Shown: positions 5,750 through 57,758 of the stretch, one piece after another | Layout of the letters: each line of letters begins with the position of its first letter | How positions within the stretch are numbered: the stretch's first letter is position 1 | Source of the DNA: an uncultured Gammaproteobacteria bacterium | GTDB lineage: Bacteria; Patescibacteriota; Microgenomatia; UBA8517 | Assembly: GCA_964500695.1 (NCBI GenBank) | Contig: CAZCNT010000001.1 | Coordinates: 1-59,515 of the forward strand | Direction: 5' to 3' | Length of the DNA stretch: 59,515 nucleotides | Notes under the pieces: model-generated | The model's database searches: none | The model's input: only the letters and a program-made list of their open reading frames with translations | What the model was told of the DNA's origin: nothing | Position numbers and translations under genes: made by a program

Positions 5750-6013
5750 CTACTTAATTACAGGTACTTCAGGTTTGGCCTCGAATTCTCCAGTTACACA
5801 AGGAGAATCTGCCCAAGCTATATTGCGCGCAGAGCAAGTTCTTCTAACTGGTAACACTTCTTCACCCGTGGCAACATCTGTAGCCATTGGAATTGGAGCA
5901 TCAACTTCTTCAGTGAGCAGACAGTTTCCACAAACCCGAATAGCTTCTAACATGGGGCGAGTATAGCCAGTGTGTGTGGAAGTCAATACTGGGCTTGACA
6001 AAATACTTATCAT
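5750..6013 (-). CDS. hypothetical small Cys-containing protein (uncertain)
   Basis: 87-aa ORF that looks more G+C-rich than its surroundings by eye. No recognisable family. A competing + strand ORF lies at 5775..5966. Confidence 0.3.
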   Translation of the reverse strand: MISILSSPVLTSTHTGYTRPMLEAIRVCGNCLLTEEVDAPIPMATDVATGEEVLPVRRTCSARNIAWADSPCVTGEFEAKPEVPVIK

Positions 6014-6032
6014 ATAGTAATATGCTTGTTAT

Positions 6033-6317
6033 ATGATAACAATTCCCAATATGGTTAAGGTGGCCGATATTCAGAGGAGATATAGGTATCTTGTTGAAGA
6101 AATGAAAAAAGCCAAAAAACCTGTGGTTATTTTGAATAACGGCACTCCCGATGCGGTGGTGATGGATGTTGCGACATATAATACTTTTGTAGAAAGGCTG
6201 AATGAATTTGAGGAAAATTATCTTTTGGCAGTTGCCGATGAGGGTATAAAAGAGTTCGAAAAAGGAAAAACCATCCCACTTAAGAAGAATCAAAAGCTTC
6301 TGGATTTGATACAATAG
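6033..6317 (+). CDS. Phd/YefM-family antitoxin
   Basis: 94 aa with the typical N-terminus (...KKPVVILNNGTPDAVVMD). Directly followed by a RelE-like gene. Confidence 0.8.
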   Translation: MITIPNMVKVADIQRRYRYLVEEMKKAKKPVVILNNGTPDAVVMDVATYNTFVERLNEFEENYLLAVADEGIKEFEKGKTIPLKKNQKLLDLIQ

Positions 6318-6322
6318 TTTAA

Positions 6323-6583
6323 ATGGACATTGAGTTGTCTTCTAATTTTTTGAAAAAGGCGAAGAGACTTTCAAAAGAAGAAAAGGTTTTATTGTCTGAT
6401 AGAATTGAGATTTTCCGAGACAATGTAAACGATTCTAGGTTGAAAATACACCCTTTGACGGGAAAATTAAAAGGTCTTTTGTCTTTTTCTTTAAATTATT
6501 CAAAAAGAGTTACCTTTGTATACTTGGAAAAAGAAAAAGTTTTGTTTATTGACGTTGGGAGTCATGATCAAGTTTATAAGTAA
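6323..6583 (+). CDS. RelE/YafQ-family mRNA interferase toxin
   Basis: 86 aa with HPLTGKLKGLLSFSLNYSKRVTF...VGSHDQVY. Confidence 0.75.
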   Translation: MDIELSSNFLKKAKRLSKEEKVLLSDRIEIFRDNVNDSRLKIHPLTGKLKGLLSFSLNYSKRVTFVYLEKEKVLFIDVGSHDQVYK

Positions 6584-6585
6584 AT

Positions 6586-7554
6586 ATGATTCTGCCCAAA
6601 ATAACGGATTTAGACGTAATCGGTAAAAGGGTTTTGCTTCGACTTGACCTTGATTGCAATCCCGACCCAAACGATTTAAGAATTAAGGCTTCCGAGGAAA
6701 CTCTCAATTATTTAAAAGAAAGAGGTGCAAGAATAATAATTTTGGCGCATAGAGGCCGTCCCGCCTCCGCAGATGCTTCGGCGAGACAAGCCCTGAGTTT
6801 ACTTCCATTTCAACCAATTTTTGACAAATGGGGAGCAAAAGTAGAAGAAAACTTGAGATTTGACCAGGGTGAAGAATCTAACGATCCTGAATTTGCAAAA
6901 AAACTGGCATCAATGGGCGATTGCTACGTAAACGAAACCTTTGGTTCAAGCCATCGTGAACACGCTTCAATAGTAGGGTTACCAAAATTACTTCCACACG
7001 CAGCCGGCCTTCATTTTGTCAAAGAAATAGAAAATTTAAGCAAGGTGATCGAGAGCCCGGAACACCCCGTACTAATAATCATTAGTGGAATTAAAAAAGA
7101 TAAATTGGAAATGATTGAACCTCTGAGTAATGTTTTTGACAAGGTTCTGGTTGGAGGCCGTTTACCTGAATTTTTGGGGGATGCTTCTTTGGAAAGCGTT
7201 AGGCTTCAAGGGGAAAATAAGAAAGTAATTGTGGGGAATCTTAATATGGATAAAGAAGACATAACCCTGAACACCATCGAGAGATTTGAGAAAGAGATAG
7301 AGAAGGCAAGAACAATCGTCCTAGCAGGTGTTTTAGGAAAATATGAGGATAGTGGCCATAGGCAGGGGACTGAGAGAATATTCAAAGCTGTGGCAGAATC
7401 GCCCGCTTTTAAAATAGTTGGTGGTGGAGATAGTTTGCAAGTAGTAAGCAGTTTAAATCTAAGCCAAAGTTTTGATTGGATTAGCGTTGGTGGCGGTGCA
7501 ATGCTGGAGTTTTTAACAAAAAAAACTTTACCGGGGATCGAAGCCTTGTTGTAA
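6586..7554 (+). CDS. pgk: phosphoglycerate kinase (compact, 322 aa)
   Basis: Contains RLDLD, AHRGRP, NETFGSSHREHAS, VGGGDS and GGGAMLEFL. Shorter than the roughly 390-aa bacterial norm. Confidence 0.88.
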   Translation: MILPKITDLDVIGKRVLLRLDLDCNPDPNDLRIKASEETLNYLKERGARIIILAHRGRPASADASARQALSLLPFQPIFDKWGAKVEENLRFDQGEESNDPEFAKKLASMGDCYVNETFGSSHREHASIVGLPKLLPHAAGLHFVKEIENLSKVIESPEHPVLIIISGIKKDKLEMIEPLSNVFDKVLVGGRLPEFLGDASLESVRLQGENKKVIVGNLNMDKEDITLNTIERFEKEIEKARTIVLAGVLGKYEDSGHRQGTERIFKAVAESPAFKIVGGGDSLQVVSSLNLSQSFDWISVGGGAMLEFLTKKTLPGIEALL

Positions 7555-9137: not shown

Positions 9138-10244
9138 ATGGTTAAAGTAGGAATTAATGGGTTTGGACGAATCGGCCGGATTGCTTTTAGAATAGGACTT
9201 CTAAAACATTCCGACGAACTTCAATTTGGCGCCATAAACACCTCCGGGAGCATGAATACAGCTGGTTGGGCACATCTGACGAATTATGACACGATGTATA
9301 GAAGATTTGAGTATCAAGTGATGAGTGATGAGTCAAAAAAACCGGAGGAAGCGACAGATGAGGATCCGCAGATAGGAAACTTGATGGTTCCAGAGAGAAA
9401 TATTAAAGTTCCGATTTTGGCACAAAGAGATCCGGCAAAGATCCCTTGGGGAAAATACGGAGTTGATGTGGTAATCGAATCGACAGGTGTTTTTACAGAT
9501 GAAGAAGGAGCCAAGAAACATGCAGTTGGGGGAGCGAAGCGCGTTGTAATTTCGGCACCTGCCAAGGGGGGCAATGTAGAAACGCATATTATTGGAGTAA
9601 ATGAGATTAAAGGAAGTCCTGAGGTGATTTCAAATTCCTCCTGTACGACAAATTCAGTTGCTCCGGTTGCCGCGATAATGTTGGCAAAATTTGGCATTGA
9701 AAAAGCCATGATGACAACTATTCATGGTTATACAGATGACCAAAATTTACAGGATGGAAGCCATAAAGATTTGCGACGTGCAAGAGCAGCCGCTATGAAT
9801 ATTGTTCCAACTTCAACAGGCGCCGCAATTTCGACAACGGAAACAATACCTGAACTTAAAGGAATCTTTGACGGCACGGCTTTAAGGGTTCCTGTTGCCA
9901 CAGGTTCTATAACTGATTTTACTTTTATTGTAAAGAAAGAAGTAACAAAAGAAGACGTAAATAACACCTTTAAAGAAGCAGTAAAAAACCCCATATACAA
10001 GGGAGTACTCGCTATTAATGAGCAAGATATTGTATCTAGTGATATCATAGGAAGAAGTGAGTCTGCAATTGTTGATCTACCTTTAACGCAAGTTGTTGCG
10101 GGAAATATGGTTAAAGTTTTTGCTTGGTATGATAACGAATGGGGGTATGCTAATCGTTTGGTCGAGCAAGTTATCCGAGTGGGCAGGACGTTGGAAAACA
10201 ATAGTGCACCTACTGATCCAATATCATTGTCATTCAAATCCTAA
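9138..10244 (+). CDS. gap: glyceraldehyde-3-phosphate dehydrogenase
   Basis: Contains INGFGRIGR, SCTTNS and WYDNEWGY. Carries an acidic insert near residues 58-80. Confidence 0.92.
   Translation: MVKVGINGFGRIGRIAFRIGLLKHSDELQFGAINTSGSMNTAGWAHLTNYDTMYRRFEYQVMSDESKKPEEATDEDPQIGNLMVPERNIKVPILAQRDPAKIPWGKYGVDVVIESTGVFTDEEGAKKHAVGGAKRVVISAPAKGGNVETHIIGVNEIKGSPEVISNSSCTTNSVAPVAAIMLAKFGIEKAMMTTIHGYTDDQNLQDGSHKDLRRARAAAMNIVPTSTGAAISTTETIPELKGIFDGTALRVPVATGSITDFTFIVKKEVTKEDVNNTFKEAVKNPIYKGVLAINEQDIVSSDIIGRSESAIVDLPLTQVVAGNMVKVFAWYDNEWGYANRLVEQVIRVGRTLENNSAPTDPISLSFKS
9311..9334. repeat. heptamer array GTATCAA GTGATGA GTGATGA GTC translated inside gap
   Basis: Tandem 7-nt period seen directly. It is the reverse complement of the TCAC word family. 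Followed by an A7 run. Confidence 0.6.
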
Positions 10245-10250
10245 ATTCAA

Positions 10251-10331
10251 AACACTAAATTCTAATTAAATTCGAATTTCAAAATTACAATTATAAATTT
10301 TTTTAGAGTTTAGAAATTAGAGTTTAGAGTT
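10251..10331. repeat. cargo-less inverted heptamer arrays (AACACTA AATTCTA ATTAAAT ... TAGAGTT TAGAAAT TAGAGTT TAGAGTT)
   Basis: Lies directly after the gap stop. Homologous in layout and words to 43993..44080. Confidence 0.75.
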
Positions 10332-10340
10332 TTAAATAAT

Positions 10341-10985
10341 ATGGACGAAAAAACAAAATACGCAGGGAAACATATTATAAAAAATATAGCTTTTTTTGGA
10401 GATGCTGATATTTCGGAAACAGATGAGACTTATAAAGCGGCATTTGATGTTGCTGAGGTGTTGGCGTTAGAAGGTTACGTAGTAGTTGACGGCGGGGGAC
10501 CGGGAGTAATGGAAGCAGCTACAAGCGGTGCTGAAAAAGGCGGAGGAAAAACAATAAGTGTGACTTTTGATCCGGTGAATGCTCCCGGATTTGAGGGGAA
10601 ATATGTAGGAAACGTAACAGATGAGGAAATAGTGACTACTAATTATCTCGAGCGAATGTTTAAGCTGATGGAGCATGGCGACATGTTTATTATTTTTAAA
10701 GGCGGAAGCGGCACGATTTCCGAATTTGGCGCAGCCTGGGTACTGGCCAAACTTTATTACGGACACCATAAGCCATTTATTTTATTTGGGGATTTTTGGG
10801 TGGAGATAATTGACGCATTCAGGAAAAATATGAATATAGATTCTAATGAATACAGTGTTTTTGAGATATGCAGAAGTAAAAATGACGTTTTGGCAACCAT
10901 TCATAAATTCGAGGGCAGAATAAATGCCCGAAATCACGAAGATGATAGTAAAAACGATGAGTATGACAAAGCATTTACTAAATAA
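10341..10985 (+). CDS. LOG/TIGR00730-family Rossmann-fold protein
   Basis: Contains GGGPGVMEA and KGGSGTISEF. Confidence 0.8.
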   Translation: MDEKTKYAGKHIIKNIAFFGDADISETDETYKAAFDVAEVLALEGYVVVDGGGPGVMEAATSGAEKGGGKTISVTFDPVNAPGFEGKYVGNVTDEEIVTTNYLERMFKLMEHGDMFIIFKGGSGTISEFGAAWVLAKLYYGHHKPFILFGDFWVEIIDAFRKNMNIDSNEYSVFEICRSKNDVLATIHKFEGRINARNHEDDSKNDEYDKAFTK

Positions 10986-11010
10986 GCAAATCTGCAAATA
11001 ATCAAATGGG
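10984..11010. repeat. octamer word array (AAGCAAAT CTGCAAAT AATCAAAT)
   Basis: 8-nt period seen directly. Same words as at 11788..11818 and 18999..19035. Confidence 0.6.
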
Positions 11011-11790
11011 ATGAAGAGAACAACAGAAGAACTAAAAAAAATTGCGCTTCAGGTTAGAAAAGATATTATTGAAATGATTTATAAGGCCGGAAGCGGGCAT
11101 CCCGGAGGTTCTCTTTCGTCGGTAGAGATTTTGGTTTCTTTCTACTTTGGAGCAGTGGAGACCGGGGATCACTTTTTTCTTTCCAACGGACATGTTTGTC
11201 CTGCGCTTTATGCAGTTATGGCTGAAAAAGGGATGATTTCCAAAGATTCTCTTGCCTCTTATGCAAGTCTTGGTTCTCCTTTACAGGGACATCCGGAACG
11301 TACAAAATTAAAAGGAATTGAGAACACTTCCGGGCCTTTGGGCTTAGGACTGGCGCAGGCTGCGGGATATGCAGCTATAGTAAAAGATTCATACGTTTAT
11401 TGCATGACGAGCGATGGAGAACATGATGAAGGCAATCATTGGGAAGCGGTTAACTTTGCAGCCAAGTATAAACTAAGCAATTTAATTCAGATTATCGACC
11501 GCAACAGAATCCAGATAGAAGGAACAACGGATGAAATTATGCCTTTAGGGAATTTGAAAGAAAAATACGAAGCCAGCGATTGGAACGTGTTGGAAATTGA
11601 CGGACACGATTTTGGTGAAATTGAAGCCGCAGTCGAAGAAGCAAGGGCAAATAAAGAAACTCCAACCGTGATTATTGCCAATACAACTTTTGGAAAAGGA
11701 GTAAGTTTCATGGAGAGTAATCCCGATTGGCACGCCCGGGCACCCAATTCTCAAGAATTTGATCAAGCCATGAAAGAATTGGTTGAATAA
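11011..11790 (+). CDS. tkt: transketolase, N-terminal subunit
   Basis: 259 aa with SGHPGGSLS and the TPP-binding region. Confidence 0.9.
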   Translation: MKRTTEELKKIALQVRKDIIEMIYKAGSGHPGGSLSSVEILVSFYFGAVETGDHFFLSNGHVCPALYAVMAEKGMISKDSLASYASLGSPLQGHPERTKLKGIENTSGPLGLGLAQAAGYAAIVKDSYVYCMTSDGEHDEGNHWEAVNFAAKYKLSNLIQIIDRNRIQIEGTTDEIMPLGNLKEKYEASDWNVLEIDGHDFGEIEAAVEEARANKETPTVIIANTTFGKGVSFMESNPDWHARAPNSQEFDQAMKELVE

Positions 11791-11818
11791 GCAAATAAGC
11801 AAATATGCAAATAAATAC
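11788..11818. repeat. octamer word array (AGCAAATA AGCAAATA TGCAAATA) spanning the tktN stop and the tktC start
   Basis: 8-nt period. The ATG of the next CDS lies inside the third word. Confidence 0.6.
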
Positions 11819-15533: not shown

Positions 15534-15555
15534 ATAAGAAAATTGTAACACAATT

Positions 15556-16006
15556 TTAGATAACTAGATGATTGGAGATTAGTTAATTGGGGTAAAATAA
15601 ATAAATGAAAGACTTTAGGGAATTAGAAGTATGGAAAACAGGATTATCTCTCCTAATTGAAATATATAAAATTACGGCGAAATTTCCAAGATCAGAAATT
15701 TACGGATTGGTTAATCAGATTAGAAGATCCGCGAATTCTATTATAGCTAATATTGCCGAAAGTCAGGGAAGATTTAGTTTTGCTGATCGTGTTAGAGTTT
15801 TATATCTAGCCAGGGGTGAAATATTCGAAGTTCGTTCCCACTTGAGCGTAGCACATGAATTAAAGTATATTGATAAGGTAACTTTTGAAAAACTTGATAG
15901 CAGTTATGAGGTATTGGCGAAGCAAACGAGCTCTCTTATTAATTATTTAGAGAAAAGAAAACATGTCTGATCCAATTTCTAATCAACCAGTAATCCAGTT
16001 ATCTAA
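15556..16006. mobile_element. putative IR-bounded cassette 1 carrying a four-helix-bundle gene
   Basis: The arms 15556..15590 and 15972..16006 are reverse complements. The outer 10 nt are perfect and 24/35 match ungapped by hand. Confidence 0.6.
15605..15970 (+). CDS. four-helix-bundle protein (23S rRNA intervening-sequence protein family)
   Basis: Contains LEVWK...FPRSEIYGLVNQIRRSANSIIANIAES, the family signature. Confidence 0.85.
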   Translation: MKDFRELEVWKTGLSLLIEIYKITAKFPRSEIYGLVNQIRRSANSIIANIAESQGRFSFADRVRVLYLARGEIFEVRSHLSVAHELKYIDKVTFEKLDSSYEVLAKQTSSLINYLEKRKHV

Positions 16007-16991
16007 TATTGCCATGCAAGAAACCATACAAAAACTTTTAGCTTCCGGAAAGGGAATTTTGGCTGCCGACGCAAGGATAAAAAGCATGGGTAAGCGTTTG
16101 GAGGCAATTGGGGTAGAACCCACACCAGAAAATGCCTTGAAATTCCGAGGAATTTTATTTGCCACTCCCGGTATTGGTGAGTTCATAAGCGGAGTAATAC
16201 TTAATGACGACACGGTTCGTAATTCATTGGAAAATAAGCCTGTACCTAAATTTCTTGAAGAAAAAGGAATCACTCCAATTATCAAAGTTGACGAAGGAAT
16301 AGAACCGTTTGGAGAAGGAGAGGAGGAGATAACAAAAGGTTTGGAAACCCTCCCCCAAAAGTTAAAAGAGTACTCAGGAATGGGGTTAAAAGCTACAAAA
16401 TGGAGAGGAGTGATTAAAATCTCCGATATTTACCCGACTGAACCTTTCTTGGAGGAAAATTTCGGCAGGATGATTAAATATGCCAAATTGTGCCAGGATA
16501 ACGCTTTTGTTCCGATTGTAGAGCCTGAAATATTACTTGACGGGAATCATACCACCACTCGTTGTGAAGAAGTTGAAACAAAAGTGCTTAAAATTTTGTT
16601 TGAGAAATTAAAGTCGGGAGGAGTGGATCTAACAAAGCTTATTCTTAAAACAAGCATGGTTCTGCCCGGAAAAGATAGCGGGGTTAAAGCTGCGCCATTG
16701 GAGGTAGCCAACGTTACACTTAGGACACTGAAAGCGGCTGTTCCCTCGGAAGTTCCCGGAATAATATTTCTTTCCGGAGGTCAGACCCCCGATCAGGCGA
16801 CAGACAATCTTAACGAAATAAGTAAACTCAAAGGAGATGTTCCGTGGCAAATATCCTTTTCTTATGAAAGGGCGCTGCAGGAGGAGGCAATGACGGAGTG
16901 GGCGGGAAAGGACGAAAATATTGTAAAGGCCCAAGAAGCATTTTACGAAAGAGTCAGGAATGTTTCGGCTGCAAGGGAGGGAAGGCTCTAG
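15963..16991 (+). CDS. fba: fructose-bisphosphate aldolase, class I
   Basis: Contains GKGILAADARIKSMGKR and is 342 aa. The N-terminal roughly 15 codons are the right arm of cassette 1. Confidence 0.85.
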   Translation: MSDPISNQPVIQLSNIAMQETIQKLLASGKGILAADARIKSMGKRLEAIGVEPTPENALKFRGILFATPGIGEFISGVILNDDTVRNSLENKPVPKFLEEKGITPIIKVDEGIEPFGEGEEEITKGLETLPQKLKEYSGMGLKATKWRGVIKISDIYPTEPFLEENFGRMIKYAKLCQDNAFVPIVEPEILLDGNHTTTRCEEVETKVLKILFEKLKSGGVDLTKLILKTSMVLPGKDSGVKAAPLEVANVTLRTLKAAVPSEVPGIIFLSGGQTPDQATDNLNEISKLKGDVPWQISFSYERALQEEAMTEWAGKDENIVKAQEAFYERVRNVSAAREGRL

Positions 16992-19000: not shown

Positions 19001-19152
19001 GCAAATCTGCAAATCTACCAATTTGCAAATAAGCATAGCTTGGCCAAATTATGAATCTGGTAAATATTTGAATGATTCAATAATTAAATAATTTGAAATT
19101 TATTTGCTTTAGACGAAGTCTCCTAATTTTCCATTTGCTTATTTGTTTATTG
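18999..19152. repeat. octamer word arrays in inverted arrangement (GCAAAT words ... ATTTGC words)
   Basis: Left arm AAGCAAAT CTGCAAAT CTACCAAT TTGCAAAT AAGCA. The right side contains TATTTGCTT and CCATTTGCTTATTTG. CAAATAAGCA / TGCTTATTTG are an exact complement. Confidence 0.6.
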
Positions 19153-19163
19153 TAGAATAACGT

Positions 19164-19520
19164 ATGGCATTTTTTGGACGGAAAAAAGATAAAGATGATG
19201 AAGAGTACGACGATGAAGACCCATCCTTCGCTGAAGTTTCGGAGGGCGAAGTGAGTTTAGAAGAACGTCGTCTCACACGAAAACTTAAGGATCTTCATAA
19301 AGAGAATCGAAAAAAGAGGAAAGAGCCTCCCAAGCCCTGGGGAAAAAAGGAACGTCTGATTATCTTGGTTATTATTATTTCTACTATTTTGATTGCCGGA
19401 ATCCTGGCTGTTTCTAACCAGGCCCATATAACTTTCAATTTCAGTAGGCCCTCTTTCAGCTTTGATTTTTCAAAATTAAATCCTCTTAAGGAAGAAACTA
19501 TTACAATCCAAAAAAAGTAG
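19164..19520 (+). CDS. hypothetical Lys/Glu-rich membrane-anchored protein
   Basis: 118 aa with a charged N-terminus and one TM segment. Confidence 0.55.
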   Translation: MAFFGRKKDKDDEEYDDEDPSFAEVSEGEVSLEERRLTRKLKDLHKENRKKRKEPPKPWGKKERLIILVIIISTILIAGILAVSNQAHITFNFSRPSFSFDFSKLNPLKEETITIQKK

Positions 19521-35033: not shown

Positions 35034-37356
35034 TGGTGTAAATTTTGGTGTGATAATTTTTTCTGCGGTAGGAATTGCCTTATTTATATTTCTGATGGTG
35101 GCCATGGGCTATCTAATTTTTGCGATGTTTAGACACAGAAAACGGGAAGAAACTTCAATCGATTCGGTTCTTCTTTCCGTGGCACTTCCCCGGAATAACG
35201 AGATAAAAATTGATGCCATGGAGCAGCTTTTCTCTTCTCTCTATTCGATTAAAAAGGGTGGTTATTGGCAAAAATTTGATATTCAACCGGCAATTTCCTT
35301 CGAAATTGTGGCGAAGCAAGAAGATATTAGGTTTTATGTCTGGGCGCCGAAGAAGCTTAAGGATTTAGTCGAAAAGCAAATTAATGGGAGTTACCCGGAT
35401 GCAGAGATTCTTGAAACAGATGAATACAACATTTTTACGAGTGACGGTAAAGTTGCTTATAAGTCTTTTCAACTGTCAAAAAGTTCCTTTTTTCCAGTAA
35501 AAACATTTAAAGATTTGGCAACCGATCCGATGGGGGGAATTACCTCGGCTTTAGCTAAAATGGGACCCGGTGAGGCTGCTGCAATTCAGGTTATAATTTC
35601 TCCCGCAGAGAACGATTGGCAAAAAGAGGGGAGCCATTTTATAAGTGATACCAAAAAACAGGAAAGCGACCCGGAAAAAGCCAAGTTTTCCACCTCTGCA
35701 AAAACTCTTGAGGCAGTAGAAAATAAAGTGGGGAAACCGGGTTTTGAAACTTCTATAAGAATTATTGCAATTTCCGACGACGAAGCCTCTGCAAAAAGCC
35801 ATGTAGCAAACATTTCAAGCGCTTTTGCTCAGTTTAACGGGGATCTAAATAATCTAAAGAGTAGGAAAATCCGTCGGAAGGGCGCTTTTATGGAAGATTT
35901 TCTTTACCGATACCTACCCATGTTTAATGTTTTTGGCAATCATCCTTCGATTCTAAATTCCGAAGAGTTGGCTACAATATTTCACTTTCCCAACAGACAG
36001 ATTACTACCCCGCATGTTTTTTGGCTTAATGCAAAAACAGCGCCTGCCCCGGCCCAAATTCCCAACGAGGGGCTTCATTTGGGGGTAAGCAGCTATCGTG
36101 GTATTAAGCGGGAGGTTTATATAGGGAATGAAGACAGAATGCGCCATATTTACATTATTGGAAAAACCGGAACCGGAAAATCGGAAATTCTTAAAGACAT
36201 GATTTTACAGGATATAAAGGACGGAAAAGGACTTTGTTTTATGGATCCGCACGGAGATGCAATTGAAGATATTCTGAAGCTAATTCCACCCGAAAGAGTA
36301 GAAGATGTAATTTATTTTAACCCCAATGATACCCAGCGCCCTATTGGAATGAACTTACTTGAAGCCAGAACCGAAGACGAGAAACATTTTGCGGCAACTA
36401 GCATTATTAATCTTATGTACAAGCTTTTTGATCCTTACAAAACCGGGATTGTAGGACCAAGATTTGAACATGGAGTTAGAAATGCCATGCTTACCGTAAT
36501 GGCAGAACCGGGAAATACGTTTGTCGAACTGATGCGCGCCATGACGGACTCCAGATATGTTCAGGAACTTCTGCCCAAGGTTACCGACCCGATTATTCGG
36601 AGATATTGGACAGATCAGATTGCGCAAACTAGCGACTTTCACAAGTCGGAGGTGTTGGATTATACGGTTTCAAAGTTTGGCCGTTTTGTTACAAATAAAT
36701 TAATCAGAAATATCATAGGGCAGCCTCAAAGCTCGTTTGATTTCAGAAAAATTATGGATGAAGGAAAAATTCTTCTTGTTAACCTGGCAAAAGGAGAATT
36801 GGGGGAGGAGAACAGTAATTTTTTGGGACTTCTTTTAGTTCCCAGGATTCTTATGGCTGCAATGAGCCGCGCAGATGTTCCGATGGAGCAGCGCCGCGAT
36901 TTTTACTTTTATGTTGATGAGTTTCAAAATTTTGCTACCCCGGATTTTGCCGTGATTCTTTCCGAAGCCAGAAAATACCGTCTTGGTCTTTGCGTTGCCA
37001 ATCAGTTTATCGGTCAGGTGGAAGATGAGGTCAAAAACGCCGTATTTGGAAATGTGGGTACAAAAATAAGTTTTAGGGTGGGTGTATCAGACGCCAATTT
37101 TTTGGCGCATGAATATGCCCCGGTTTTTGGAGAGGACGATTTACTTAATGTTGAACGTTTTCATGCTTATGTAACCACCATCGTTGACAACGAGCCGGTT
37201 CCTCCATTTTCTATGGATACGACGAAAGATATAAGTAAGATTAAAGCTATGGAAAGCCCGAGAATTGCTGAAATAATTAAGGAGATGAGCAGACTCAAGT
37301 ATGGCAGGGACGAGAGACTGGTGGAAGCTGAAATGAACCGAAGGTCTAAACTGTAA
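35023..37356 (+). CDS. VirD4/TraD-like (type IV coupling protein-like) membrane ATPase
   Basis: N-terminal TM pair, Walker A GKTGTGKSE and Walker B-like FYFYVDEFQNF. 777 aa. Confidence 0.75.
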   Translation: MYLDGVNFGVIIFSAVGIALFIFLMVAMGYLIFAMFRHRKREETSIDSVLLSVALPRNNEIKIDAMEQLFSSLYSIKKGGYWQKFDIQPAISFEIVAKQEDIRFYVWAPKKLKDLVEKQINGSYPDAEILETDEYNIFTSDGKVAYKSFQLSKSSFFPVKTFKDLATDPMGGITSALAKMGPGEAAAIQVIISPAENDWQKEGSHFISDTKKQESDPEKAKFSTSAKTLEAVENKVGKPGFETSIRIIAISDDEASAKSHVANISSAFAQFNGDLNNLKSRKIRRKGAFMEDFLYRYLPMFNVFGNHPSILNSEELATIFHFPNRQITTPHVFWLNAKTAPAPAQIPNEGLHLGVSSYRGIKREVYIGNEDRMRHIYIIGKTGTGKSEILKDMILQDIKDGKGLCFMDPHGDAIEDILKLIPPERVEDVIYFNPNDTQRPIGMNLLEARTEDEKHFAATSIINLMYKLFDPYKTGIVGPRFEHGVRNAMLTVMAEPGNTFVELMRAMTDSRYVQELLPKVTDPIIRRYWTDQIAQTSDFHKSEVLDYTVSKFGRFVTNKLIRNIIGQPQSSFDFRKIMDEGKILLVNLAKGELGEENSNFLGLLLVPRILMAAMSRADVPMEQRRDFYFYVDEFQNFATPDFAVILSEARKYRLGLCVANQFIGQVEDEVKNAVFGNVGTKISFRVGVSDANFLAHEYAPVFGEDDLLNVERFHAYVTTIVDNEPVPPFSMDTTKDISKIKAMESPRIAEIIKEMSRLKYGRDERLVEAEMNRRSKL

Positions 37357-37805
37357 GGCAAGTAATAAAAGTAAATAAAGTAATGAAGGTAATACAAGTA
37401 TGGAAAGTGGATACAAGAAGCTGATAGTTTGGCAGGAAGCTTTAAAGTTGATAGTTTTGGTTTATAGGTTAACGAAGACCTTCCCAAAATCTGAAGACTA
37501 TGCGCTAAGAGACCAAATAAGGAGAGCGGTGGTCTCGGTGTTAAGCCAGATTGCTGAAGGGTGGCTGCGTAGCTCCAAAAAAGATAAACTTCACTATCTT
37601 GAAATTTCATTAGGTTCTTTAATGGAGGTTGAGTCTCAGGCCGAAGTAGCATTAGCAGTTGGGTACTGGAATTTTAACAATCTGCAAGATTTTGAGGCTC
37701 AACGGGCCAAAGTTTGCTATCTTCTGGTAAGGTATGTTTCTAAGATTAAGTCCGGTTAGCCTTCTTATTACCTGTATTACTTCTATTACGTTTATTACTT
37801 TTTCG
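37356..37805. mobile_element. putative IR-bounded cassette 2 carrying a four-helix-bundle gene
   Basis: The arms 37360..37399 and 37760..37800 are reverse complements (30/40 by hand). They are built of 9-nt GTAAT words. Confidence 0.65.
37400..37759 (+). CDS. four-helix-bundle protein (23S rRNA IVS protein family)
   Basis: Contains LIVWQEALKL...FPKSEDYALRDQIRRAVVSVLSQIAEG. Confidence 0.85.
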   Translation: MESGYKKLIVWQEALKLIVLVYRLTKTFPKSEDYALRDQIRRAVVSVLSQIAEGWLRSSKKDKLHYLEISLGSLMEVESQAEVALAVGYWNFNNLQDFEAQRAKVCYLLVRYVSKIKSG

Positions 37806-37878
37806 TAAGTTTGGTATAATTGCCTCAGTTGGGGACCCTTATAAGCGAAGCTTGAAGCTGGCGCTATAGCAAAATTTT

Positions 37879-37953
37879 GGGCCATTCGTTCATCGGCTAG
37901 GACGGGACTCTTATAAAGTCCAAAGGATAGTTCGACTCTATCATGGCCCACCA
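37879..37953 (+). tRNA. tRNA-Ile, anticodon UAU, CCA encoded
   Basis: Hand fold: GGGCCAT-TC-GTTC-ATCGGCTA-GGAC-G-GGACT-CTTATAA-AGTCC-AAAG-GATAG-TTCGACT-CTATC-ATGGCCC-A-CCA. U8, A14, GG, U33 and the TTCGA T-loop are all present. Confidence 0.85.
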
Positions 37954-37975
37954 AAATTTTGGTATAGCGGAGCGC

Positions 37976-43628: not shown

Positions 43629-43979
43629 ATGGATCCAATAAATTTTGAACAATTCGAAGCTGTTGATATTCGTATCGGCACGGTTAAGAAAGCCGACGTG
43701 CCGGAGTGGAGCCATTGGGTTATCCGAATGGAGGTTGATTTTGGACCGGAAATCGGAACTAAAAAAGCATTTTCCGGAATAATGAAGTTTTTTACTCCCG
43801 AGGATCTTATCGGAAAACAATTTCCATTTGTTGTTAATCTTGAACCCAAGAAAATTGGGCCGGACAAGGAGATGAGCGAGGCAATGATGATTATGTGTGT
43901 GCCAAAAGAAGATGAAGAAACTCCAACCGTTCTTTTCAAGCTCCAAAAGAAAGTTCCAGATGGAACTAAGGTGCGCTAA
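43629..43979 (+). CDS. tRNA-binding OB-fold protein (CsaA/Trbp111-like)
   Basis: Contains FEAVDIRIGTVKKA...FPFVVNLEPKKI. Confidence 0.75.
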   Translation: MDPINFEQFEAVDIRIGTVKKADVPEWSHWVIRMEVDFGPEIGTKKAFSGIMKFFTPEDLIGKQFPFVVNLEPKKIGPDKEMSEAMMIMCVPKEDEETPTVLFKLQKKVPDGTKVR

Positions 43980-43992
43980 CGCACAAATACAA

Positions 43993-44080
43993 AACTCTAA
44001 TTTCTAAATCCTAATTAAATCCAAAATTGGAATTTGTAAATTAAAATTTATTTAGAGTTTAGAATTTAGGATTTAGGGTT
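43993..44080. repeat. cargo-less inverted heptamer arrays (AACTCTA ATTTCTA AATCCTA ATTAAAT ... TAGAGTT TAGAATT TAGGATT TAGGGTT)
   Basis: 7-nt period on both arms. The arms are roughly complementary when G-U pairs are allowed. Same layout as 10251..10331. Confidence 0.75.
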
Positions 44081-49364: not shown

Positions 49365-50471
49365 CTACTTTTTAAATGTTGTATACAAATCGAAAAGTTT
49401 TTGAGCGGTATTTTTTGCTGAAAAACTCAAAGCGTATTCGTAGGTTTTTTGCGAAAGACTATAATAGTTTTCTTTGTTTTTTGCGATTTCACTTATCTTT
49501 TCTGCGATTTTTTTAGGATTTCTTTCGCAAATATATCCGGATTGGTTGTCAATTATCAGTTCTTCAAGACCAGAACCTTTTAAAGATATGGTAGGAATTC
49601 CTGAAGCCATAGCTTCAAGGATTGAAATCGGCATAACCTCGCTTAATGATGGTGTAATAAAAAGATGAACAGACTTGTATATTTCCGGAATAAGTTTTCT
49701 GTCAACCACTCCCGTAAAGGTTATATTATTTTCAAGTCCCAATTTAAATGTTTGATCCTGCATTTTTTGAAAAAGAAGACCCGAACCTAAAATCCAAAAT
49801 TTAAAATTGGGGATTAACTTTTTGAGCTCTCTGGCTATCTTAATCAATTCCAGAGGGTTTTTTTCTCTATCCAACCTGCCGGTATAAGCCAGTGTCAGGG
49901 GATGAAAGGGTTTTTCTTGAGGTTTATTAAAAAAGAAATCCTCGACGCCATTATTGACAATAATGGTGTTTTTAATGCCGTGTTTAATCAGTCTTTTTTC
50001 AGTGTTTGACGATGGACAAATAACCTTCTTTGATTTTTTGGAAATTTTGACTAAGTCTCTAATCAATATTTTTGAGGTCGCGTCATAACCTTTGGGAAAG
50101 TAATAATTTAAATACTGCTCATATTGTGTATGGGCAGTAAAGAAAAGAGGTTTGCCCAGCCTATCCGCTATTTGCGAAGCCGCCTGCCCGATTATTAAGG
50201 GATGGTGTGTATGGACAATATCTATTTTTAATTTTTTGATTTTTTTTGTGGGTAAGAAGGGAATTCCCATAGGATAATTTTTAATAAACGGGTTAGGCAG
50301 AGACGGATATCGGATAACATCTTTATATTGGTCTTTATATCCCGGGAACGATGGGGCAAGAATATATACTTTATGGCCAAGTTTCCTCAGAGCATCGGCT
50401 GTTGAGCTAATGTGATAAGTGACCCCGTTTGCTGTGGGAAGATAACTGGCTGTTGTGAATAGGATGTGCAT
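49365..50471 (-). CDS. GT4-family glycosyltransferase
   Basis: 368 aa with SEVMPISILEAMASGIPTI. Confidence 0.8.
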   Translation of the reverse strand: MHILFTTASYLPTANGVTYHISSTADALRKLGHKVYILAPSFPGYKDQYKDVIRYPSLPNPFIKNYPMGIPFLPTKKIKKLKIDIVHTHHPLIIGQAASQIADRLGKPLFFTAHTQYEQYLNYYFPKGYDATSKILIRDLVKISKKSKKVICPSSNTEKRLIKHGIKNTIIVNNGVEDFFFNKPQEKPFHPLTLAYTGRLDREKNPLELIKIARELKKLIPNFKFWILGSGLLFQKMQDQTFKLGLENNITFTGVVDRKLIPEIYKSVHLFITPSLSEVMPISILEAMASGIPTISLKGSGLEELIIDNQSGYICERNPKKIAEKISEIAKNKENYYSLSQKTYEYALSFSAKNTAQKLFDLYTTFKK

Positions 50472-50494
50472 TGGGGTGTATTATACTTCATGAG

Positions 50495-51634
50495 ATGATA
50501 AAAAAACTGAAACTTGTCAATTTTAGAAATTTCAAGGCCAAAACGTTGGATTTTTCCGACAAAGTTACGGTGATTGTCGGACCGAATGCCAGCGGGAAAA
50601 CTAATATTCTCGAATCTCTTTTTTTACTTTCTACCGGGAAAAGTTTTAAGGCCAGGATTGAATCGGAAACGATTCAATATTCGAGCGATATCGCTCGAAT
50701 AATAGGTAATACAAGTAATGAAAGTAGTATAAGTAATACACAATTAGAGGTGGTGCAGACGCGCGGGGAGAATGGTTGGCCGAGAAAAAAGCTTCTGGTT
50801 AACGGAGTTCCAAAGCGCTTAATTGATTTTGCAGGAAACTTTAGAACAGTTCTTTTTGGCCCTTGGGATATGGATATTGTTACAGAGAGCCCGAGCCTAA
50901 GAAGAAGGTTTTTGGATACAGTGCTATCCCAAGTTGATAGGGAATACCGACGTTCCATCCTTTCCTATGAAAAAGGATTAAGGCAAAGAAATCGGGTGCT
51001 TTGGACAATGCGGGAGTATCCGACAGGCTCTTCGGGACGCGACAAACTCCTTTTTTGGAACCAACTTCTCATTAAAAATGGGAATTATATTACAGAAGCC
51101 AGGGAAAATTTTATCGATTTTTGTAATTCTCACCAGTCACAAGTCACTAGTCACTATTCACTGGAGTACGACAGGTCCCTAATATCTGAGGGAAGACTTG
51201 AACAGTACAAAGAAGAGGAAATTGCGGCGGCCACAACACTTGTCGGTCCTCATCGTGATGATTTCATTTTTCTGAAAAGTAATACAAGTAATAAAAGTAA
51301 CACAGGTAATATAGGTAGGGAACTGGCCTCATTCGGCTCACGGGGTGAACAGAGGATGGGGATTTTGTGGCTAAAAATGGCGGAATTGGATTATATTGAG
51401 AAATGCTCTACTCTGGATTCGACTCCCTCGGCAGACCTCAGTTCGCTCACCATTCGTCGGAGCGCGGACTCACGTCCGACGCTTCTTCTCGACGATATAT
51501 TTTCGGAACTGGATCATGAACACAGGGAAGTGGTTATGCAAATCTCAAAAAAACAACAGACGATAATTACCACGGCAGACCCGCATTTTGTCAGCAATTT
51601 GAAAAAAGTGGAGAGAATTGAACTGTTGAGATAG
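50495..51634 (+). CDS. recF: DNA replication and repair protein RecF
   Basis: Contains LKLVNFRNF, GPNASGKTN and LLLDDIFSELD. Start taken at MIKKL. Confidence 0.9.
   Translation: MIKKLKLVNFRNFKAKTLDFSDKVTVIVGPNASGKTNILESLFLLSTGKSFKARIESETIQYSSDIARIIGNTSNESSISNTQLEVVQTRGENGWPRKKLLVNGVPKRLIDFAGNFRTVLFGPWDMDIVTESPSLRRRFLDTVLSQVDREYRRSILSYEKGLRQRNRVLWTMREYPTGSSGRDKLLFWNQLLIKNGNYITEARENFIDFCNSHQSQVTSHYSLEYDRSLISEGRLEQYKEEEIAAATTLVGPHRDDFIFLKSNTSNKSNTGNIGRELASFGSRGEQRMGILWLKMAELDYIEKCSTLDSTPSADLSSLTIRRSADSRPTLLLDDIFSELDHEHREVVMQISKKQQTIITTADPHFVSNLKKVERIELLR
50705..50740. repeat. 9-nt GTAAT word array in recF (GNTSNESSISNT)
   Basis: GTAATACAA GTAATGAAA GTAGTATAA GTAATACAC. Confidence 0.7.
51131..51164. 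repeat. heptamer array CACCAGT CACAAGT CACTAGT CACTATT CACTGG in recF (HQSQVTSHYSL)
   Basis: 7-nt period seen directly. Confidence 0.7.
51277..51316. repeat. 9-nt GTAAT word array in recF (SNTSNKSNTGNIG)
   Basis: Shares the exact 16-mer CAAGTAATAAAAGTAA with the cassette-2 arm (37359..37374). Shares a 19-mer with 40581..40600. Confidence 0.75.
51404..51480. repeat. G+C-rich in-frame insert in recF containing a T-arm-like GGATTCGACTCC and hairpin CGTCGGA...TCCGACG
   Basis: Encodes CSTLDSTPSADLSSLTIRRSADSRP immediately before the conserved LLLDD. GGATTCGACTCC also occurs at 38118..38129. Confidence 0.55.
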
Positions 51635-56836: not shown

Positions 56837-57286
56837 GTTAGCTATTAGCTACTAGCTACTAGAGCTTAGAGCCTAGTTATATTAGAATTTGTTTGTGGCG
56901 ACGATTAAGTGCTTTGAGGATCTTTTGGTTTGGCAAAAAGCTAGAGTGCTAGTTAAGAGAATTTACAGCATAACTTCTTCTTTTCCTTGTGAGGAAAAAT
57001 TTGGCCTAATTGATCAGATTCGTCGTGCAGTCGTATCTATTATGGCAAATGTTGCCGAGGGATTTTCGCGCTATCGGATAGCTGAGACGGTTATGTTTTA
57101 TCGAACAGCAAGAGGGTCCCTATCTGAGGTTAAAAATCATTTGTATATTGCATTAGATTTAGGCTATATTAATAGCACTGAATTTAAAAAACTTGTGGAA
57201 ACAATAGATGAAATTGGGAAAATGCTAAATGGTTTGATAAATTCAACTGAGAATTATAGAAAAACTAAGCTCTAGGCTCTAATGAC
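56837..57286. mobile_element. putative IR-bounded cassette 3 carrying a four-helix-bundle gene
   Basis: Left arm heptamers GTTAGCT ATTAGCT ACTAGCT ACTAGAG CTTAGAG CCTAGTT. Right arm AACTAAGCTCTAGGCTCTAATGAC. The core is 18/21 complementary by hand. Confidence 0.6.
56889..57275 (+). CDS. four-helix-bundle protein (23S rRNA IVS protein family)
   Basis: Contains LLVWQKARVL...FPCEEKFGLIDQIRRAVVSIMANVAEG. The start is non-ATG (TTG 56889 or GTG 56895). Confidence 0.8.
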   Translation: MFVATIKCFEDLLVWQKARVLVKRIYSITSSFPCEEKFGLIDQIRRAVVSIMANVAEGFSRYRIAETVMFYRTARGSLSEVKNHLYIALDLGYINSTEFKKLVETIDEIGKMLNGLINSTENYRKTKL

Positions 57287-57758
57287 TATGAAACTTATAA
57301 TTGGGTTGGGAAATCCCGGAAAGGATTACGAGAACACCCGTCACAATGTCGGTTATATGATAGTGGACAGATTTAGGAAGATTGGTCTTTCGAAAGGTGT
57401 AATGGTGAAAAAATCGGATGTTTTTATGAACAGCTCGGGAGAATTTGTTAAGAAAATTACTGAGCTCTATCCTCTAAGCTCTAATAGCTTATATATTGTT
57501 CACGATGATCTTGATATCCCTCTTGGATCATACAAAATCCAGTTTGGGCGGGGGCCGAAAGACCATAACGGTTTAAAATCGGTTGATGAAGCCTTGGGAA
57601 CGGATCAATATTGGCATGTGAGGGTGGGGATAGAGAATAGAGCTCAGAGCTCAGAGGTTAGTGGATACGACTATGTTCTCCAAAATTTTAGCGATGAAGA
57701 AAGAATAATTTTGAAAATGGTTGTACAAGAGGTATGCCACAAACTTGACAACATATAA
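57282..57758 (+). CDS. pth: peptidyl-tRNA hydrolase
   Basis: Contains GLGNPGKDYENTRHNVG and VHDDLD...HNGLKS. Confidence 0.9.
   Translation: MTMKLIIGLGNPGKDYENTRHNVGYMIVDRFRKIGLSKGVMVKKSDVFMNSSGEFVKKITELYPLSSNSLYIVHDDLDIPLGSYKIQFGRGPKDHNGLKSVDEALGTDQYWHVRVGIENRAQSSEVSGYDYVLQNFSDEERIILKMVVQEVCHKLDNI
57461..57490. repeat. AGCTC-word patch inside pth (TELYPLSSNS)
   Basis: TGAGCTCTATCCTCTAAGCTCTAATAGCTT. Same word family as the cassette-3 arms. Confidence 0.45.
57636..57664. repeat. heptamer patch TAGAGCT CAGAGCT CAGAGGT TAGTGG inside pth (RAQSSEVS)
   Basis: Shares TAGAGCTCAGAGC with 46406..46418. Confidence 0.5.

Follow-up and report, generated by a model that had tools for sequence, protein, structure and literature searches.

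Why does a gene of the family first met in 23S rRNA intervening sequences (IVSs) lie directly ahead of an aldolase gene, enclosed by two sequences that are reverse complements of each other? The question is posed by a contig from an uncultured bacterium (CAZCNT010000001.1 of GenBank assembly GCA_964500695.1; GTDB lineage Patescibacteriota, Microgenomatia, UBA8517), of which we analyzed the whole stretch of 59,515 nt, here called the window. The gene encodes a four-helix-bundle (4HB) protein of PF05635, which is to our knowledge among the commonest bacterial protein families without known function. The family is the closest relative of Avd, a factor of diversity-generating retroelements (DGRs), and has been a puzzle since its discovery in rRNA intervening sequences in 1993; the tandem heptamers found in the genomes of Cyanobacteria and others have lacked an explanation for a similar time. 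Inverted heptamer-type arrays around the 4HB gene in mRNA, tRNA-cluster, and rRNA settings join the two puzzles. We describe here the anatomy of these cassettes, their generality, their presence and absence at a syntenic site, the purifying selection acting on their protein, and the identity of their design with that of an rRNA IVS.

The cassette at the aldolase locus (c1) lies on the forward strand, as do its two counterparts in the window (c2 and c3). TTAGATAACTAGATGATTGGAGATTAGTTAATTGG (15556-15590) and CCAATTTCTAATCAACCAGTAATCCAGTTATCTAA (15972-16006) are reverse complements with 24 of 35 positions paired ungapped and the outermost 10 perfect, as had been counted by hand in an earlier note made from the letters alone (the sequence-only reading), and two single-base gaps extend the pairing to 15551-15590 / 15972-16011. 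Smith-Waterman comparison of the 75-nt flanks gave a score of 38 vs. 15.4 ± 2.4 in 300 dinucleotide shuffles (z 9.4). The left arm (15551-15590) consists of about five tandem units of 7-9 nt, TTAGATAAC TAGATGAT TGGAGAT TAGTTAAT TGG, and is C-poor; the right arm (15972-16011) reads CCAATTT CTAATCAA CCAGTAAT CCAGTTAT CTAA TATTG, lies inside a long fba open reading frame (ORF), and in a reading-frame analysis has one frame without stops. The arms bracket, as had been claimed, a 4HB gene of 121 aa (15605-15970; PF05635, E 6e-32), the closest solved relative of whose product is PDB 2GSC (XCC0516; E 8e-15). The class I fructose-bisphosphate aldolase gene fba (15963-16991; Pfam PF00274, E 6e-98) opens with an ATG at 15963 that overlaps the 4HB stop codon (ATGTCTGA), and an alternative, ancestral ATG lies in frame at 16012. 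Just 5′ of the left arm, a conserved motif, AAATTGTAACACAATT (15540-15555, forward strand), is present both at sites that hold the cassette (the window and loci L001, L002, and L008 of other genomes) and at an empty one (L065: ATATTGTACACTAAT); its presence at filled and empty fba sites alike marks it as host sequence rather than part of the cassette, and it probably represents the promoter region of fba. The cassette thus sits between that promoter region and fba, with a divergent membrane-protein gene upstream. A TAAAAT/TACAAT box 6-10 nt 5′ of the c1-type start codon was spotted by eye.

Exactly three PF05635-like ORFs were found in the window, each bracketed by complementary arms, and they match the family with 110-134 bits (cutoff 33.8) over profile positions 1-104/106. 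The recurrence of the architecture at two further sites, proposed in the sequence-only reading, is upheld by shuffle tests of both. The left arm of c2 (37353-37400), about five 9-nt units of the AAGTAATAA type, begins at the stop codon of an upstream TrwB/TraG-like ATPase gene; the 119-aa 4HB gene (37400-37759; PF05635, E 2e-32) follows, and the right arm (37765-37802), about four 9-nt units of the TATTACCTN type, ends the cassette 77 nt 5′ of tRNA-Ile(TAT). The paired part, 37360-37394 / 37766-37800, is 35 nt long and 83% complementary (z 7.5). In c3, which lies between a 108-aa ORF and pth, the left arm (56837-56876) has 7-nt units TAGCTAC / TAGAGCT directly after the upstream stop codon, the 4HB gene spans 56889-57275 (PF05635, E 2e-39; likely start GTG 56898), and the right arm (57265-57288), CTAAGCT CTAGGCT CTAATGA, shares bases with both the 4HB stop codon and the start of pth; its pairing, 56846-56869 / 57265-57288, covers 24 nt with 75% complementarity (z 4.5). 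When the three cassette RNAs were folded, the arms formed the closing helix in both the minimum-free-energy and the centroid structure of each. An Rfam scan of the window gave a tRNA as its sole above-threshold match and no known RNA family over the arms. The genes flanking c1-c3 are fba, the membrane-protein gene, the TrwB-like ATPase gene, tRNA-Ile, the 108-aa ORF, and pth.

The architecture is general among 4HB genes. A one-genome-per-species scan with the c1-type alignment returned 56 loci from Patescibacteria, Pirellulales, Phycisphaerae, Gamma- and Deltaproteobacteria, Bacteroidota, and others. For 58 distinct 4HB genes (of Patescibacteria, Planctomycetota, Proteobacteria, and Bacteroidota), the duplex-energy z of the upstream against the downstream flank had a median of -3.7, with 57% below -3, compared with a median of -0.04 and 2.3% below -3 for 220 control genes of the same loci (Mann-Whitney p 2e-23); the excess of flank complementarity over shuffled controls is thus a property of other copies of the family as well. 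Nearly all aligned arm pairs are tandem arrays, of units such as GAATTAGT, AAGATTA, AGTTAATT, and ATGATCA. Tandem Repeats Finder reported 101 arrays of period 7, 107 of period 8, and 61 of period 9, against 4, 4, and 3, respectively, in shuffles, an enrichment of more than 20-fold, and the density of such arrays within 120 nt of a 4HB gene is 7 times that of the remaining sequence. Those adjoining 4HB genes have a median of 4.4 copies (interquartile range 3.7-5.0) and a median length of 35 nt, with period 8 more frequent than 7 and 7 more frequent than 9, and the general build of an arm is three to six tandem units of 7-9 nt in about 35 nt. Of 45 left arms, 41 are C-poor, with G>C on the coding strand. 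The arms are rich in stop codons on either strand, and 40-60% of them have a stop in every frame, vs. 8-33% after shuffling. The arms of the three window cassettes had been called entirely different in sequence, which does not hold at the level of their build: they are tandem 7-9-nt arrays of the same polarity, about 35 nt long, with related stop-rich motifs. Permuting the units of the left arm lowered the pairing score from 38.6 to 29.5 (p 4e-12); the two arms therefore mirror each other in the succession of their variant units and not in the consensus unit alone. The C-poor rule was also tried on arrays 5′ of any gene and found unsupported away from 4HB genes (22 vs. 13; 19 vs. 22).

In 50 of 56 cases, the 4HB gene is co-oriented with its downstream neighbor (background 73.5%), and spacers of about 50 nt, filled by the arrays, lie on each side. 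Consensus promoter and terminator scans of the cassettes found none, including no consensus sigma-70 site in c1, noncanonical promoters being outside the scope of the scan. Given co-orientation, short spacers, and the lack of consensus signals, both arms would be expected on one read-through transcript. In about nine loci (L013, L015, L020, L036, L038, L039, L044, L046, and L060; ~5800-7200 in each), the 4HB gene stands between tRNA-Thr(TGT) and tRNA-Trp, a recurrent patescibacterial site in a tRNA-Thr / tRNA-Tyr / tRNA-Thr cluster at which several copies have weaker arms; this is a stable-RNA operon context like that of rRNA. The L060 copy (6001-6366) is a 4HB pseudogene with several in-frame stops that keeps a perfect 17-nt arm match (TAGTTGATTGGTTAATT), and it may represent a step toward hairpins without an ORF.

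The fba locus allowed the cassette to be compared with its absence. An fba-based metagenome scan returned five loci, two of which (L065 and L066) are informative empty sites: the divergent membrane-protein gene, fba, and pfkB are all present, as in the window, but a spacer of about 50-70 nt takes the place of the cassette. Filled sites are those of the window, L001, L002, L008, L075, L076, L078, and L079. The PfkB protein of empty L065 is 82% identical to that of the window, compared with 84% for filled L008 and 79% for filled L001; the empty sites are not an outgroup, and the patchy presence and absence therefore reflects clean loss or repeated gain. No target-site duplication was evident between filled and empty junctions, in a comparison that was not systematic and in which the ends of the arms are fuzzy. 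Across the eight filled orthologs, arm sequences differ and complementarity is kept (z 10.7, 6.3, 8.8, 2.0, 5.0, 4.3, 2.1, and 4.6), with compensatory changes such as TTAGATAAC/GTTATCTAA to TTAGTTAAT/ATTAACTAA. The c1-type 4HB orthologs are 72-79% identical, and in the four compared (window, L001, L002, and L008) the ratios of nonsynonymous to synonymous divergence (dN/dS) are 0.09-0.16, with dS from 0.86 to saturation; these substitution patterns point to strong purifying selection on the protein (dN/dS ~0.1). In a closer comparison, that of the window with L064 (a strain pair with 95% amino acid identity in fba), the cassette region 15534-16006 differs at 4 of 473 nt (0.85%), compared with a divergence of 3.1% in fba and 9.0% in the upstream gene, which indicates either strong constraint or recent cassette exchange. 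The arms of this pair show 0 differences in 70 nt, which is not significant by itself. Arrays of the right-arm unit of the fba cassette (TGGTTGAT type) were also seen in the N-terminal coding part of the divergent membrane-protein gene, at 5846-5886 in L008 and 2261-2285 in L001; these arrays complement the right arm, in L008 more closely than the local left arm does.

The same orthologs bear on the claim that the right arm is translated as the N terminus of aldolase. Fba of the empty sites starts with (M/V)EETIKKLL or MKDSIQKLL, at the position of the window ATG 16012. In six of the eight filled orthologs this ancestral start has been lost (it is now CTT or CTA), and translation of the aldolase must therefore begin within the cassette, at the ATG overlapping the 4HB stop codon, whereby the right arm comes to encode an N/Q-rich tail (MPDPNQ...NQL); in the right arm of these six, the single would-be in-frame stop has been mutated. 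L078 keeps a separate fba start, and the window keeps both ATGs, with a conserved purine-rich tract preceding the first (15963). The claim accordingly stands insofar as the arm lies inside the fba ORF and its translation is forced in six orthologs; in the window itself translation of the arm is uncertain, because ATG 16012 matches the fba start of the empty sites. By supplying the start codon and N-terminal tail of an essential enzyme, the fba cassette exemplifies how an insert becomes hard to lose.

A protein search of finished plasmids, which extends the comparison to cultured strains, yielded 30 records, mostly from Nostocales. Inverted heptamer arms flank 10 of the 14 copies inspected: Nostoc punctiforme PCC 73102 pNPUN01 (1617-1982; arms (TCAGGAG)n / (CTCCTGA)n), Trichormus variabilis ATCC 29413 plasmid C (60378-60743; units of TCAGAAT/TCAGGAG type), Aulosira NIES-50 (TCAGGAG), Nostoc ATCC 53789 (GGGAAAA), Calothrix NIES-22 (GGGTGTA), Geminocystis NIES-3709 (AAGGGAA), Anabaena 90 (listed among the ten, without a clear unit), Picosynechococcus PCC 7003 (L073, CP016476; 126543-126899, GGAGATA), Riemerella anatipestifer (CP081938; 100318-100734, AAGGTTC), and Azospirillum lipoferum (L087; GGACAGA / GGACGGA). 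The Azospirillum copy lies within a 23S rRNA gene (Rfam large-subunit positions 1069-1349), and its inverted heptamer arms pair with a z of 14. Two PCC 7120 copies adjoin insertion sequence (IS) transposase genes and are without a left arm, and no pairing was found between the flanks of the Calothrix PCC 7716 copy. Some cassettes lie within CRISPR-Cas operons, between cmr2 and cmr3 in L073 and 5′ of cas4 in L083 and L085. 23S_rRNA_IVP genes in cas loci have already been reported, as cas-associated (PMC3936711); by their flanks, these 4HB genes look like cassette insertions with repeat arms of their own rather than cas components, and the earlier reports call for re-reading as cmr2-cmr3 insertions.

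What, then, would the arms be for? We give roughly even odds (about 50%) to the reading that these are IVS-type cassettes residing in mRNA and tRNA operons, the arms of which pair in the read-through transcript. Each locus would comprise a PF05635 gene without recognizable promoter or terminator, placed between two inverted arrays in a transcribed spacer and co-oriented with its neighbors. The purine-rich, C-poor upstream array would pair with the pyrimidine-rich downstream array in an imperfect helix of about 30-40 bp, closing off the ORF as a loop of about 400 nt, which is the geometry of the ORF-bearing 23S rRNA IVSs cut by RNase III; the arms are taken to pair in RNA because the design is identical to that of rRNA IVSs. 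Such a helix would most likely act as a mark for double-strand-specific processing, as a gate on ribosome access, or as both, and the insert would thereby do little harm to the host operon. The tandem units would make several pairing registers available to the arms, and the stop codons in the arms would halt incoming ribosomes. At fba, the last codons of the cassette would furnish the aldolase start codon and the right arm would become the N-terminal tail. Pairing in RNA rather than DNA, cleavage by RNase III, and any role of the protein at the arms are inferred.

Several observations weigh against this reading. Of the 234 mismatches in the arms, 142 are transversions, and G·U (50) is not favored over A·C (42); given the lack of G·U bias, nothing in them is specific to sense-strand RNA pairing, and in a comparison of sense and antisense duplex energies neither strand was favored. 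Cutting the helix would remove the aldolase start codon from the fba mRNA in six of the eight orthologs, which argues against obligatory cleavage at this locus. The arms of some copies are weak (L008, L078, and several in tRNA clusters). On plasmid pPg_01 of Pseudanabaena galeata (L083, 46268-46627), the 4HB copy has direct arrays in the same orientation, (AAAAGCT) x12 upstream and (AAAAGCC) x9 downstream, with no inverted pairing. Finally, recF and pth carry similar arrays within their coding regions, for which a part in RNA processing is difficult to imagine.

Besides the arms, the window holds further arrays. Two hairpins lack an ORF: one, at 10232-10332 in the interval from gap to a LOG-family gene, is made of the inverted heptamer arrays ATTCTAA x5 / TTTAGAG x4.4 (fold z -3.9), and the other, at 43976-44076 and 5′ of ftsH, is made of ATTTAGA x3.9 and the complementary array (fold z -3.3). 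The recF gene (50471-51634) holds in-frame tandem arrays at 50706-50738, 51130-51162, and 51275-51311, two of them 9-mer arrays that carry the c2 arm unit (AAGTAATAN, encoding S-N-T/S-N-K repeats) and one a 7-mer array (TCACTAG x4.7), and by their sequence the arrays appear to have invaded its coding sequence as low-complexity inserts. Two heptamer arrays of AGCTCTA type, inverted relative to each other, lie in frame inside pth (57282-57758), at 57460-57489 and 57631-57654; the first is 87% complementary to the c3 left arm over 23 nt, exceeding the right arm of c3 itself, so that the unit may have alternative pairing partners or have spread locally. The ORF-less hairpins and the recF and pth arrays would fit an element family with nonautonomous derivatives, against which stands the finding that single arm units are not over-represented in the window. 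Dispersal of arm units in the manner of REPINs (hairpins of repetitive extragenic palindromic, REP, sequences) was considered and rejected on that ground, the few recF and pth arrays being those that share c2 and c3 units. Direct AAATAAGC arrays of about 3.5 copies each stand at both ends (10980-11007 and 11786-11814) of a gene for the N-terminal half of transketolase (11011-11790). At 19001-19151, in the spacer before an ORF at 19164-19520, about 100 nt separate GCAAATCT x3.8 from its complement ATTTGCTT, and an array of TAAATAAT x4 stands between the two; the fold is not significant (z -1.0), and the structure may be a decayed hairpin. Directly downstream of c2, a 19-nt inverted repeat of 95% complementarity (37862-37880 / 37951-37969) extends the acceptor stem of tRNA-Ile(TAT) (37879-37953; fold z -5.75 for 37858-37973) and looks like a processing stem.

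Two other explanations of the arms deserve consideration, and both carry less weight than pairing in RNA. The cassette might be a mobile or hairpin-forming element at the level of DNA, its arrays being ends that offer multiple sites to a recombinase or to the 4HB protein, with complementarity as a by-product of their inverted symmetry and the ORF-less hairpins as nonautonomous relatives; we regard this as possible, if on balance doubtful. The clean empty fba sites speak for it, L065 being as near to the window as the filled L008 and L001, as do the ORF-less inverted arrays in the same genomes, the retention of arms by the pseudogenized L060 copy, the recurrence of c2- and c3-unit arrays in recF and pth, the mismatches without G·U bias, and the divergence of 0.85% in the cassette vs. 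3-9% in its flanks in the strain pair, which could reflect recent transfer. However, by Pfam the cassette encodes no domain of a transposase, integrase, or nuclease, and the nameable neighbors of c1-c3 are housekeeping genes or the TrwB/TraG-type ATPase (two neighbors have no Pfam match). Arm sequences differ between copies in one genome, unlike the terminal repeats recognized by one enzyme, the junctions at fba give no sign of a target-site duplication, and the counts of single units in the window do not suggest dispersal. Moreover, arms and protein have been kept in vertically inherited orthologs at a dS of about 1 or more.

Alternatively, the arrays could be binding sites, a pentameric 4HB ring reading tandem units at about one per subunit in the manner of TRAP (the trp RNA-binding attenuation protein) on triplet repeats, so that a cassette's own arrays would be autoregulatory, arrays elsewhere would form a regulon, and pairing would be secondary or competing. 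The median of 4.4 units (interquartile range 3.7-5.0; periods 8 > 7 > 9) is of the right size for this, although the match with subunit number is merely numerical; the homologs XCC0516 and Avd are pentameric according to the literature and Avd binds RNA, whereas for stand-alone members of the family binding is putative only. That paralogs of one genome carry different units, that binding factors are suspected for the intergenic heptamers of Nostoc and Beggiatoaceae, and that the 4HB protein is under strong purifying selection all agree with binding, but simple binding sites would have no need of a mirrored order of variant units, and the arrays that lie away from 4HB genes have no fixed polarity relative to gene starts (22 vs. 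13). We rate this explanation as quite unlikely. Accidental complementarity of AT-rich low-complexity spacers, or an assembly artifact, has a negligible probability: AT-rich repetitive spacers do inflate local alignment scores, and c3 alone reaches only z 4.5, but chance is rejected both by the comparison with dinucleotide shuffles and by that with control genes, arrays of period 7-9 outnumber those in shuffles more than 20-fold, and the design recurs in independent assemblies by the dozen, some of them finished plasmids from cultured strains.

Beyond the reading of paired arms in a read-through transcript, a wider proposal can be made, tentatively and as something we think improbable: stand-alone 4HB proteins would be the trans partners of 7-9-nt repeats in Cyanobacteria (those of the short tandemly repeated repetitive, STRR, type), Beggiatoaceae, Bacteroidota, and the candidate phyla radiation (CPR), the ring would recognize, in RNA or DNA form, the roughly five units of the cassette that encodes it, paralogs would co-evolve with their unit, and cassettes, hairpins, and solo arrays would constitute one selfish or regulatory family. 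If this were true, the classical rRNA IVS would be only the best-known landing site of a widespread family of elements. Both puzzles are open to experiment in culturable carriers, among them Nostoc punctiforme, Trichormus variabilis, Picosynechococcus PCC 7003, and Riemerella.

Parts of this picture are already known, namely rRNA IVSs, the spread of "four helix bundle protein" genes, their presence in cas loci (PMC3936711), and intergenic heptamers (PMC4679880; bioRxiv 10.1101/2022.06.06.494920). The link between a 4HB gene and flanking inverted arrays outside rRNA is, as far as we found, new: the full-text literature searched, which did not reach older subscription papers, gave no such description, in agreement with the sequence-only reading. 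Among known systems, DGRs are related through Avd, which has a homologous four-helix-bundle fold, forms a positively charged pentameric barrel, and binds an RNA stem-loop of its own element (bioRxiv 10.1101/2023.10.23.563531). Avd does not belong to the same Pfam family, as the sequence-only reading had it, but now to a related one of its own (bAvd, PF22296), against which c1, c2, and c3 score 22.5, 26.9, and 43.9 bits, c3 alone reaching the cutoff of 40; no reverse transcriptase is found among the immediate neighbors of c1-c3, and no repeat of the size of a DGR template or variable repeat (TR/VR) lies near. Unlike the attC sites of integrons, the arms have no adjacent integrase, and their pairing spans the two sides of the ORF rather than being confined to one.

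With ISs and miniature inverted-repeat transposable elements (MITEs) the cassettes share presence and absence at orthologous sites, as at fba (L065 and L066 empty); the 4HB gene is the only ORF in the cassette, and arm sequences differ among c1, c2, and c3. Correia/nemis elements of Neisseria are MITE-like spacer inserts that are bounded by inverted repeats, occur in mRNAs, and are substrates of RNase III; unlike the cassettes, they measure about 100-150 bp, have no ORF, and possess conserved terminal repeats and a TA duplication in place of tandem 7-9-mers. In REP/REPIN-RAYT systems, as here, a protein gene is flanked by inverted repeats and many ORF-less hairpins lie in spacers; RAYT (the REP-associated tyrosine transposase) is a Y1 transposase, and REP sequences are over-represented genome-wide, whereas the 4HB protein has no nuclease fold and single units show no such excess in the window.

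Intergenic heptamers have been described as cyanobacterial STRR sequences, as TAACTGA repeats in Beggiatoaceae, Cyanobacteria, and Bacteroidetes (MacGregor 2015, PMC4679880), and in Nostoc (bioRxiv 10.1101/2022.06.06.494920). Like the arms, they are tandem 7-nt units in 2-8 copies in spacers near start codons, carry stops in three frames, and occasionally form in-frame arrays in ORFs; they have no known function, a binding factor being suspected. They differ in that the published accounts present them as direct repeats and not as a gene-flanking inverted pair, and the cassette units, which measure 7-9 nt and vary from copy to copy, differ from their published sequences. A link to S23 or four-helix-bundle genes is not drawn there (0 occurrences).

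The closest comparison is with the rRNA IVSs themselves. ORF-bearing 23S rRNA IVSs reportedly form a group that includes those of Leptospira, Coxiella burnetii, and Brucella and goes back to Ralph and McClelland in 1993. rRNA inserts of the CPR, in 16S as well as 23S genes, contain 23S_rRNA_IVP ORFs (PMC11270868); that study concerns the same phylum-level group and ORF family as ours, but it is confined to rRNA genes, and "inverted repeat" occurs in it 0 times. A 2021 review of RNase III likewise gives IVSs only for 23S rRNA. The stem of the Coxiella IVS has three tandem GACAGAT units before its S23p ORF, at the first of which RNase III cuts (Warrier et al. 2016, PMC4990558). With the 23S rRNA IVSs, the window cassettes have in common a PF05635 / S23p protein, an ORF in the loop of a long helix formed by flanking inverted sequences, tandem heptamers in the arms (Coxiella and Azospirillum L087), a sense orientation of the ORF in the host transcript, and a patchy distribution. 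They differ in lying between protein genes or beside a tRNA and outside helix 25/45 of 23S rRNA, in a protein under purifying selection where the Coxiella ORF is reported to be decaying, and, at fba, in an arm that has turned into coding sequence. Excision by RNase III, shown for rRNA IVSs, is putative for cassettes of the window type. At fba, the fused aldolase start and the absence of a G·U bias speak against simple excision in the manner of an IVS. The proposal of IVS-like, stem-bounded cassettes outside rRNA is thus confirmed in its anatomical part by the arm build shared with the Azospirillum and Coxiella (PMC4990558) IVSs: the window cassettes have the anatomy of ORF-bearing IVSs in another host context, with a design identical to that of a real rRNA IVS.

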